A stretch of 64,000 bases of DNA from Botryllus schlosseri (lineage: Eukaryota): the NCBI GenBank assembly GCA_051294905.1, contig CM119371.1:20400001-20464000 (forward strand), read 5' to 3'. Position 1 is the stretch's first letter; each line of letters starts with the position of its first letter. The notes under the pieces are model-generated. The model had not been told where the DNA came from, searched no databases, and saw nothing but the letters and a program-made list of their open reading frames with translations. Positions 35,290-37,560 of this stretch are shown here, one piece after another. Position numbers and translations under genes: made by a program.

Positions 35290-37560
35290 ATGTACCATCA
35301 ATTAGTACTTACGGATCATGATGAAGTGAAAATTCCTTATGGGCTCTATCACCAAACTATGACTGAATTGGACATCAATAATATCGCGAATTCTCTTATT
35401 CGCCAATCTCACGTGTATGAGTTAGAATTTCGTCAATGTCATCTCAATGAAAACCTCGTCCAGATTCTATTGGATAAAATTCGCGGATTTGAATATGGGT
35501 AAACGCCTTCGCACATTCCGCTCGTAGTCATTGATCATTATAAATTCACGTTCAATTTAAGTATATGTTATCCGTAAATATTGAGATACAGTTTTATCGT
35601 TATCGCATTGTTCTGTATTACTAATGTGTTAAGGCGCAAATTGGTGGTATCGCAGCGAACAATGCTCATTTGCTAGTGGTATAGGCATTAGTCTCGATAG
35701 CCTTACTAGATAGACTATAGTCAGAGTTGATCAGTGTTAGGCTGTTCATAGATCATTTAGCGTTTTATGCGTTACGTTTTGCACTCGTTCAGGTCGAAAT
35801 AAGAAAACTCAGCGTTACAGCACACGACGACATTGAAAAACTCATCCCATTAATCTGCGAGCTGATGAAGGAGTGTGCTTCGACGGAGCTCAATCTGCAA
35901 GAAAGTGGTGGATCCGATGATTTTCTGATTATTTTGAGTAAACTTATCCAGCACCATCAGGTATTGGTGATGGAAAAAGCTAGGGGCTAATCTAGTATAG
36001 AGCCTCTCGAAGTGATATTTCCTAATACCTCATTTCCGTAGGTGAAATTGAAAAACCTCGATCTCAGCTACAGGGAGAACATTAACTTTACGCAACTCGG
36101 GACTATTATTTCGAGCGATCTAGCATATTTGTCAGTTGTGAACTCGCGCTTGCAGTCAACAGATTTCATTGCTATGCAGCTCAAAAACATTAAGGTCTGC
36201 GCGATTATTGCTGGGTACAGTTGTTAATGATCACATTCTGTATGAGCGACTGTGTAGAGATGGATGAGGGAAATTCTAGTTTAATCTTAGCACATTTAGC
36301 CTATATTATGACGTGAGTGACTAAACAACATTTTTTTGCTGTTATAAGTTTGAATTTTTTATGCCTGATCATTGCTGATCGTAAATTTTCCGATATTTTT
36401 TAGCTCCAATATCTTGACATTAGTTACAATCAGCTGGATGAAGAGTGTATGATCGCGCTGCCTGCCTTACTTTGTAAAGACAAAGCGGTTACTCTGATCA
36501 TGAAAGGGTGTGGCCTTACACCCGAAGAAATTCACGCTTTTGAAAGTTTTGCTGATATCGAGGTACTTAATCGTTTCTATAGTTTTGTGGATCATTTTGA
36601 AATAAATTGGTGGATTTATAGGTTGAAAGCCTTGATCTGAGTTACAATACCGATATGGAACCGGCGGGCTTGAAAGAAATTGGATGCTTCGTAAGAAAGC
36701 ATTACACGAAAACAGTTCGACTTTCAGCTTGCGAATTGGATGAAGACTCACTAATATCGTTAAATAATGGTCTCGGAATTTATGAGGTGATCATTTGAAG
36801 TAGATCTGTTTTGTTTTCTAACTGAAATATTCAATCACAGTGTAATGCTTATGTGAGTTTTAGTCATATTCAAGCATGACATTTCATTGATCGATAGAAT
36901 TTTCATCATCAATAAAGTGTTTCTGATCACGAGCTTCATTATCTTCTTCGGTGTTGAATAAGTTTTTGCTATTAGGAGTAGAAGTCGCAAAAAGAAAAAA
37001 AAATGCTCAACCGTCGGTAAATAATATTATGACTAATCTATTACAGCCTTCGAGCCGTTTGTAGTCTCGTAATCTATCTGAACATCACACCATGTTTTAG
37101 CTGCATTCGCTGGATTTAAGTAGAAATCCTGGCATATCATCCTGCTACAAAACAGTAACTAAAGTCCTGTGCAATTCCCGTGTGGAAGAATTTAATCTGT
37201 CTAATTGCAAGATGCTTTCCATGCAAATCAGGAATCTGAGCGAAGAGATGGGAAAACGATGCGGTACGGTAAGATCTTTCTGCTCAATCATAGATCCCGA
37301 TGTAGCGATGTAGTTCGTTTCTTTACTTTTAAATTGATATTAATCTCGTATTATTCAATTAACAGCTAAAGGCAATCGACCTCAGTGATAGCGATAGAAC
37401 GAGAATCGATGAGAAATACGTGAATTCCATTCAGAGCTTCGTGAGATATAATCCTGAATGCCGCAAAGTCAAACTAGTCTTACCGCGCTTGAGTGGGGAA
37501 GATATGAAGACCTTGAGAAAACAACTGTTCTCACCCAGTAAGGGGATATTTTCCGAATAA
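35290..37560 (+). CDS. LRR-only protein, right-arm copy; exons 35290-35498, 35793-35960, 36042-36194, 36404-36562, 36622-36786, 37101-37268, 37366-37560; 1-nt deletion at end of exon 1 predicts a frameshift
   Basis: Exons translate to VKLKNLDLSY, LQYLDISYNQL, VESLDLSYN, LHSLDLSRN, LKAIDLSD; canonical splice sites; stop overlaps AATAAA. Confidence 0.78.

Follow-up and report, generated by a model that had tools for sequence, protein, structure and literature searches.

A palindromic Polinton-type element of Botryllus schlosseri carries the distal leucine-rich repeat block of a host NLR gene, a possible immune decoy

Architecture of the locus

The window, a stretch of 64,000 nucleotides of Botryllus schlosseri (GCA_051294905.1, contig CM119371.1, positions 20,400,001 to 20,464,000), contained two mobile elements, one nested in the other (Table 1). 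The outer element was flanked by a 6-bp target duplication, GGCAGT, at 25958-25963 and 60222-60227. Based on its termini and this duplication, it is a Polinton-type element. Polinton core genes were not present in its arms in the window, and it is therefore not an autonomous Polinton. The ends, the duplications and the absence of core genes suggest a helper-dependent satellite. An assembly artefact was ruled out as the source of the palindrome, since both ends carry the duplication, point changes and insertions distinguish the two arms, and the family occurs genome-wide.

The nested Polinton carried genes for an integrase, a packaging ATPase, Bcl-2, E2, BIR and a death domain as well as tRNAs, and showed a weak match to a double-jelly-roll capsid. 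Its putative pPolB and protease were named by gene size and order, without a Pfam match. Two further ORFs of 410 aa (55073-56305, minus strand) and 183 aa (57467-58018, plus strand) had no Pfam match either. The empty site of this Polinton survives in the left arm of the palindrome near 26815. Altogether, five tRNA genes were located within the two elements, at 28856, 39411, 42643, 43440 and 56599 (three Leu, one Ala and one Pro).

The Bcl-2-family gene of the outer element (Pfam Bcl-2, E 4.5e-22; mirror copy from 29396, plus strand) and the LRR-only gene were arranged tail-to-tail. The Bcl-2 gene of the nested Polinton (41779-42282) was a single ORF, 81% like the palindrome Bcl-2, and stopped 8 codons past the corresponding point; the palindrome gene has an intron and the hydrophobic tail exon there. 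Most palindromes and some of the gene-carrying Polintons had relatives of the 113-aa ORF.

The LRR-only gene had originally been regarded as cargo of a Polinton and as a complement to the death-domain-only gene. Neither assignment was supported: the LRR gene lies in the outer element, which the Polinton interrupts, and the death-domain-only gene belongs to this different, later-inserted element. Because the two genes sit in different nested elements, they share the locus only via the later insertion.

Table 1. Positions of the features in the window.
Feature	Position	Strand	Remarks
Outer element	25964..60221	.	near-perfect palindrome of ~16.4 kb minus nested Polinton; AGTAGT...ACTACT ends
Palindrome centre, unpaired 45 nt	34321..34365	.	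both LRR genes face outward
LRR-only gene, right-arm copy	35290..37560	+	seven exons, six GT-AG introns; frameshifted after exon 1 as assembled
Exons of right-arm copy	35290-35498, 35793-35960, 36042-36194, 36404-36562, 36622-36786, 37101-37268, 37366-37560	+	
LRR-only gene, left-arm mirror copy	30790..33396	-	open spliced frame, 406 aa
Exons of left-arm copy	33396-33187, 32892-32722, 32308-32156, 31946-31788, 31728-31564, 31249-31082, 30984-30790	-	
332-nt insertion, intron 2 of left copy only	32350..32681		SINE-like, label inferred
DNA homology to host NLR	35228..37640	+	G000:C16 ~8,629,570-8,627,100, minus strand
Bcl-2-family gene, outer element, two exons	38170..38954	-	exon 1 38954-38481; exon 2 from 38283, hydrophobic tail
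tRNA-Leu(taa), outer element	39411..39494	-	mirror 28856-28939 (+)
113-aa ORF, family unassigned, outer element	41167..41508	+	mirror 26842-27183 (-)
Nested gene-carrying Polinton/Maverick	41537..59365	.	238-bp TIRs, 6-bp duplication AATGTT
Death-domain-only ORF	58558..58866	-	Pfam Death E 3e-11; part of nested Polinton

The introns of the right-arm LRR copy measured 294, 81, 209, 59, 314 and 97 nt. Its seven exons and six GT-AG introns agreed with the original prediction, but the open product of about 406 aa expected there did not. Exon 1 comprised 209 nt versus 210 nt elsewhere in the family, which shifts the reading frame downstream of it in the assembled sequence, and the joined frame held 28 internal stops. 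Either a mutation or an assembly error would account for the short exon. It is the open mirror copy that has the predicted 406 aa and 171-nt exon. The chance of an open frame of 405 codons at the local base composition was about 4e-13, a value uncorrected for the choice of splice sites; the matching host gene described below settles that the seven-exon structure is real. Exons 2-7 had lengths divisible by three and held two LRR-type units apiece, as had been predicted. Pfam searches with single exons gave LRR_1 or LRR_6 matches in three of the seven exons, all below threshold, and the spacing of the LRR motifs fits, at the motif level, RI-type repeats of about 28 residues.

Origin of the LRR-only gene

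With exon 4 as query, 15 proteins were retrieved among 1.84 billion, and the named matches were Styela clava proteins. The NACHT protein P0009 aligned to all seven exons in order, with 41% identity over 374 aa (E 6e-85). Searched against the genome, P0009 identified one host locus, G000:C16 near 8.63 Mb, with an E value of 5.5e-113; the next match reached 4.6e-15. NACHT matches in the genome numbered at least 94, and this donor was the only one from its subfamily. From the NACHT exon onward, its 13-exon model was open and comprised 1198 aa, and the first large exon matched Pfam NACHT with 67 bits, above the cut-off. The order of the donor is NACHT, a first LRR block, an 88-aa linker exon that is 73% polar, and a second LRR block, of which only the last was captured.

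The element product was 65% identical to the donor over 394 aa. All six intron positions were common to donor and element, and the introns were alignable. The exon lengths of 210, 168, 153, 159, 165 and 168 nt were identical in the host gene and in the element subfamilies A and B, with differing intron lengths. Homology at the DNA level began about 50 nt inside the preceding host intron, ran through the last seven exons with their six introns and ended in a short 3' tail. A retro-copy was ruled out since all introns were kept, and an origin from a ribonuclease inhibitor or another non-NLR gene since the donor carries NACHT. The capture of a truncated NLR LRR region, as originally suggested, is thus borne out by an intact NACHT-LRR donor with identical exon structure, and the comparison with host NLRs returned a NACHT gene as best locus, not a non-NLR LRR protein. 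It is nearly certain that the element acquired the 3' end of a single host NLR gene as genomic DNA. At the position of ACA in the host, A and B have a new ATG. Since both subfamilies share this ATG and the exon lengths and form a clade with support of 98/94, a single capture is indicated.

The NACHT half of the donor (host residues 1-800) had no match in the window or within the element stretches, in agreement with the predicted lack of an upstream NACHT domain. Its comparison with 93 sequences gave one match, a neighbouring host NLR in stretch L098. Upstream NACHT exons hidden in the element were considered as well and none were found. Being without a NACHT domain, the LRR-only gene does not encode an NLR protein. 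Directly upstream of it (35239-35289), TATAAAA was located about 50 nt 5' of the new ATG. The host splice-acceptor AG was kept in the same segment in A and B, with a decayed pyrimidine tract, and this AG, just ahead of the new ATG, might serve as acceptor for a leader or for an exon further upstream.

Further searches added little. Exon 5 against longer proteins gave nothing further, exon 2 had no match among phages, residues 806-1198 of P0009 matched no shorter proteins and only P0009 itself among proteins of similar length, and the Atlas search returned generic LRR clusters only. A structure model was available for P0009 as a stand-in for the element protein. In this model (mean pLDDT 48), residues 823-1197 formed regular beta-alpha repeats and residues 770-820 were without structure. 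Foldseek with this low-confidence model matched NLRPs, NOD2 and NLRC4 at a TM of about 0.2, to which no weight was given; the matches to oocyte NLRPs were generic, with 11-14% identity.

The domain order of the donor bears on how the captured block could work. In a classical dominant negative, the role originally suggested, the LRR would bind the host NLR at its NACHT domain or in an oligomer and hold it off. In NLRC4, the LRR is described as self-inhibitory, and the same has been suggested of NLRP3 (PMC6642158); an NLR-derived gene without NACHT would suit such a role. The captured block is, however, separated from NACHT by the first LRR block and the polar linker, and the stand-in model has no structure at residues 770-820, though at low confidence, which makes this mode of action improbable. 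The element took the distal LRR, which lies behind the linker and not next to NACHT; for this reason, competition for the ligand of the receptor is the preferred reading.

The element family in the genome

The outer terminus gave 806 first-look candidates genome-wide, of which 40 were scored. The 20 fetched elements were mostly palindromes of 11-18 kb with arms usually more than 99% identical and with differing cargo. The target duplication passed a strict automatic test in 11 palindromes and was unresolved within the fetched stretch in the others. None of the 20 was matched by the core proteins of the nested Polinton. In these palindromes (L016-L055), the 20-30 bases past AGTAGT varied between elements and usually matched at both ends of one, and cargo blocks were mixed and matched. 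One palindrome, in stretch L030, held an inserted 848-aa ORF that resembles a retroelement reverse transcriptase.

A whole or partial LRR gene was present in 10 of the 20 palindromes, five of the 20 having been picked for carrying it. The other ten showed no trace of the gene, which is therefore dispensable. A 21-base motif from exon 6 was found at 138 genome sites (73 plus, 65 minus) and its reversed control at none; among the 100 listed of the 138, the sites were mostly head-to-head pairs. Tandem or multiply folded palindromes at G000:C10 21.036-21.058 Mb, C9 13.235-13.257 Mb and C11 4.85-4.86 Mb held three to four LRR copies whose orientation alternated.

The two LRR copies within one element showed no differences over 1023 exon bases in five of six pairs and two differences in one pair. 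Copies from different elements differed at 5-28 exon bases. Such arm identity would fit copying through a fold-back form. From a set biased to the best matches, 31 full-length copies were parsed at distinct places; 24 were open to codon 394 and seven were broken. Among six further copies, three were broken in exons 4-7. Elements of A and B were about 75% alike in DNA and held LRR and Bcl-2 in the same order. A third subfamily, C, was seen in the comparison of spliced-read variants. The centre of subfamily B (L077+L078) was a GC-rich hairpin, unlike the A centre of the window, and the distance from centre to gene varied among A elements.

Five gene-carrying Polintons, representing four capsid families, were without an LRR gene, as was the Polinton of the window itself. 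With at least 99 capsid matches in the genome, this census is incomplete. Around unpaired or odd LRR copies, ten stretches lacked core genes, bar one weak integrase fragment with 30% identity; one of these stretches adjoins the end of a Polinton. In the largest capsid family, both members examined (L104-L107; G000:C8 25.65-25.67 Mb and C9 10.20-10.22 Mb) retained only the last 76 codons of pPolB, with Bcl-2, the 113-aa ORF and BIR in place of pPolB, and their ends were 75-77% like the palindrome terminus. Polinton ends or fragments like the nested one of the window adjoined or lay near other LRR palindromes (L097+L098, L099), hinting at a repeated co-location.

Transcripts of the element copies

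Four of the 24 runs listed, in an index without RNA-labelled entries, were compared with 34366-39100, and the comparison covered 6% and 13% of the two raw runs. Spliced joints were seen at two of the six introns at very low depth, and exon 1 was almost without reads. The intron 4 joint was present in seven reads with seven starts from X23 and in one contig of X1, and the intron 6 joint in two reads from X19 and in X1. Four X23 reads held the joint of the 197-nt Bcl-2 intron. None of these joints occurred in X12, a run of unstated type, in which introns 4 and 5 were retained. X1 is merely presumed to be RNA, and some of its contigs retain introns.

The X1 contig showed 12+17 differences, which fits subfamily C (11+18) and not the host gene (28+31). 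The variants in X23 matched A or C rather than the host gene, and one loose end in X19 fits the host gene best (26/30). As the source of every spliced read, the host gene was ruled out for X1 and X23; for X19 it stays a candidate. The alignment of spliced RNA that the original prediction had called for thus gave joints at introns 4 and 6, with the intron 4 reads fitting element copies rather than the host. Element copies appear to be spliced at a low level. The runs, as far as covered, contained no full-length transcript and no read assignable to the copies of the window.

Selection on the captured gene

Between A and B, dN was 0.139 and dS 0.453, and the intron distance was 0.31. Branch dN/dS was 0.26 for A (bootstrap 0.17-0.41) and 0.27 for B (0.16-0.46), obtained by a counting method from 13 distinct A and six distinct B sequences, with one pair for the branch split. 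Neutral decay had been named as the outcome contrary to the original prediction; the A and B branches showed a ratio of about 0.26 instead. The gene was very probably under purifying selection after its capture, as judged from these substitution ratios. Within A, dS was 0.018 and dN/dS was about 1.16 for singletons and about 0.57 for shared changes. Neutral singletons would be expected if selection acts during replication and lapses after insertion. Within B, dN/dS was 0.29 (six sequences).

The selection may also have acted elsewhere, in a lost autonomous virus or a host paralog, with the palindromes merely amplifying the gene as a passenger. The ratios within A would agree with this, the gene is missing or broken in many palindromes, and the presence of Bcl-2 and the 113-aa ORF also in gene-carrying Polintons indicates that cargo moves between element kinds. 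An autonomous source was nevertheless not apparent: all five gene-carrying Polintons examined were without the LRR gene, and the ten stretches at unpaired or odd copies lacked core genes, bar the weak integrase fragment. Moreover, the A and B palindromes retain the gene order over about 25% DNA divergence, and the ratio within B remains low. We consider a mere passenger unlikely and selection within the palindromic elements the better reading.

The predicted concave face was defined as the 65 exposed strand positions of the 13 repeats, assigned from the LRR motif and not from a structure. Of these 65 face positions, 52 in A and 57 in B were identical to the host; of the 277 other positions, 160-161 were (p 1e-3 and 3e-6). 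The counts correspond to 80% and 88% versus 58%. Between the host gene and P0009, face identity was 46% versus 36% elsewhere. Changes on the host-plus-stem branch affected 3 of 65 face positions versus 62 of 277 others (p 4e-4), and this was the sole significant branch. The B branch was suggestive, with 2 versus 22 changes, and the A branch showed no face constraint (7/65 versus 23/277). Face differences between A and B were weakly reduced (12/65 versus 77/277, p 0.16; p 0.05-0.22 over three pairs). The element began from, and largely keeps, a conserved predicted binding surface.

Conservation of the face also allows the donor to be a non-immune scaffold like the oocyte NLRPs, in which case the element copy would manipulate a housekeeping or germline partner for access to the germline. 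The donor is the single locus of its subfamily and its face is conserved, not diversifying, as a scaffold of this kind would be. The neighbouring Bcl-2 gene and the BIR and death-domain genes of related Polintons point to control of cell death instead, and the oocyte NLRP matches were generic, so that a scaffold origin is given a low probability. Alternatively, the LRR could have been re-aimed at a polymerase, capsid or integrase of the helper Polinton, as a means of satellite-helper regulation. Among the elements examined, only helper-dependent ones carried the gene, and subfamily A has seven face changes of its own. For a new target, a face still 80-88% identical to the host is unexpected, and this possibility is very unlikely. 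A decoy that uses the face of the host receptor remains the preferred interpretation.

Discussion

We propose that a palindromic, non-autonomous Polinton-type element took the distal LRR block of a host NLR once, as genomic DNA, and that a new ATG turned it into a stand-alone gene of about 405 aa. Purifying selection, as seen for A and B, would have acted on this gene as the element diversified into three or more subfamilies. Replicating on the enzymes of a helper Polinton, the element would express a soluble LRR solenoid without NACHT. This solenoid would keep the concave face of the host receptor and compete for the partner of the receptor without signalling, so that an NLR-linked defence or death response would be dampened. 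Together with the neighbouring Bcl-2, it may sustain cell survival to the benefit of satellite and helper, and integrated copies would then decay neutrally. A probability of roughly 45% is given to this whole account, including the mechanism of a competitor decoy. A decoy is a plausible candidate role of the LRR gene. More tentative is the view that satellites serve as accessory-gene modules for helper viruses and take up pieces of host immune genes as DNA, with the LRR as a selected, satellite-borne decoy of one host NLR.

The original prediction had called multi-intron genes unusual cargo for Polintons. This stands only in part, since intron-bearing cargo has already been published for nematode Mavericks, namely wasp proteases and krma kinases proposed to be host-taken (bioRxiv 10.1101/2022.07.12.499685). 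The nematode cargo likewise consists of host-type genes with introns between Maverick/Polinton ends. It lies beside core genes, whereas the LRR gene is present twice in a palindrome without core genes. In addition, the LRR gene codes for a truncated domain of an immune receptor, uses a newly gained start codon, and its donor sits in the same genome. Cell-death regulators on animal Polinton-type elements are known from adintoviruses, which carry Bcl2 and IAP homologs (PMC8502044); here, Bcl-2 adjoins the LRR gene. Unlike the present element, adintoviruses are described without LRR or NLR cargo in the main text of that paper, where 'leucine' does not occur and 'NLR' appears in a reference only.

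A virus-borne NLR-related protein is represented by KSHV Orf63, a herpesvirus NLR mimic that inhibits the host NLRP1 (PMC3304090). According to that review, Orf63 resembles the nucleotide-binding domain of NLRP1 and its function was tested, whereas the present gene is LRR-only and its decoy function is putative. Unlike Orf63, the element gene is 65% identical to its donor and keeps the host introns. By analogy, it may resemble a viral immune decoy. No case of an LRR-only inhibitor was found in the available text of PMC11768854 or PMC5536018. Vertebrate NLRP genes share the frame-preserving two-repeat LRR exons with a boundary at the strand (PMC6642158). Their exons are strictly 171 nt, unlike the uneven 153-168 nt here, and the present gene is mobile and without NACHT.

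Helper-dependent palindromes that supply or tune gene products are also known as AAV snapback subgenomes (bioRxiv 10.1101/2020.10.20.346957). These are transient parts of their own viral genome, whereas the Botryllus elements are integrated, present in many copies and equipped with host-derived cargo. Fungal Starships likewise hold NLR-related cargo on a large mobile element (PMC10175614), but they form an unrelated class with a tyrosine recombinase and few copies, and LRR-only truncations are not described in the available text. A literature search, mostly of abstracts, gave no paper in which a Polinton or a palindromic non-autonomous Polinton carries an NLR or LRR gene.

One NLR among about a hundred was singled out for copying, and its ligand can therefore be sought directly. 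If the proposed role is true, the NLR antagonist on the virus side is borne by a satellite and not by the virus. A trans-acting gene under selection in a non-autonomous element suggests a stage at which the cargo pays, such as extrachromosomal replication or infection. The locus has preserved unusually well how a virus-like element made part of a host immune receptor into a gene of its own, since a single genome still shows the donor, the breakpoint, the new start codon and the selection that followed capture.
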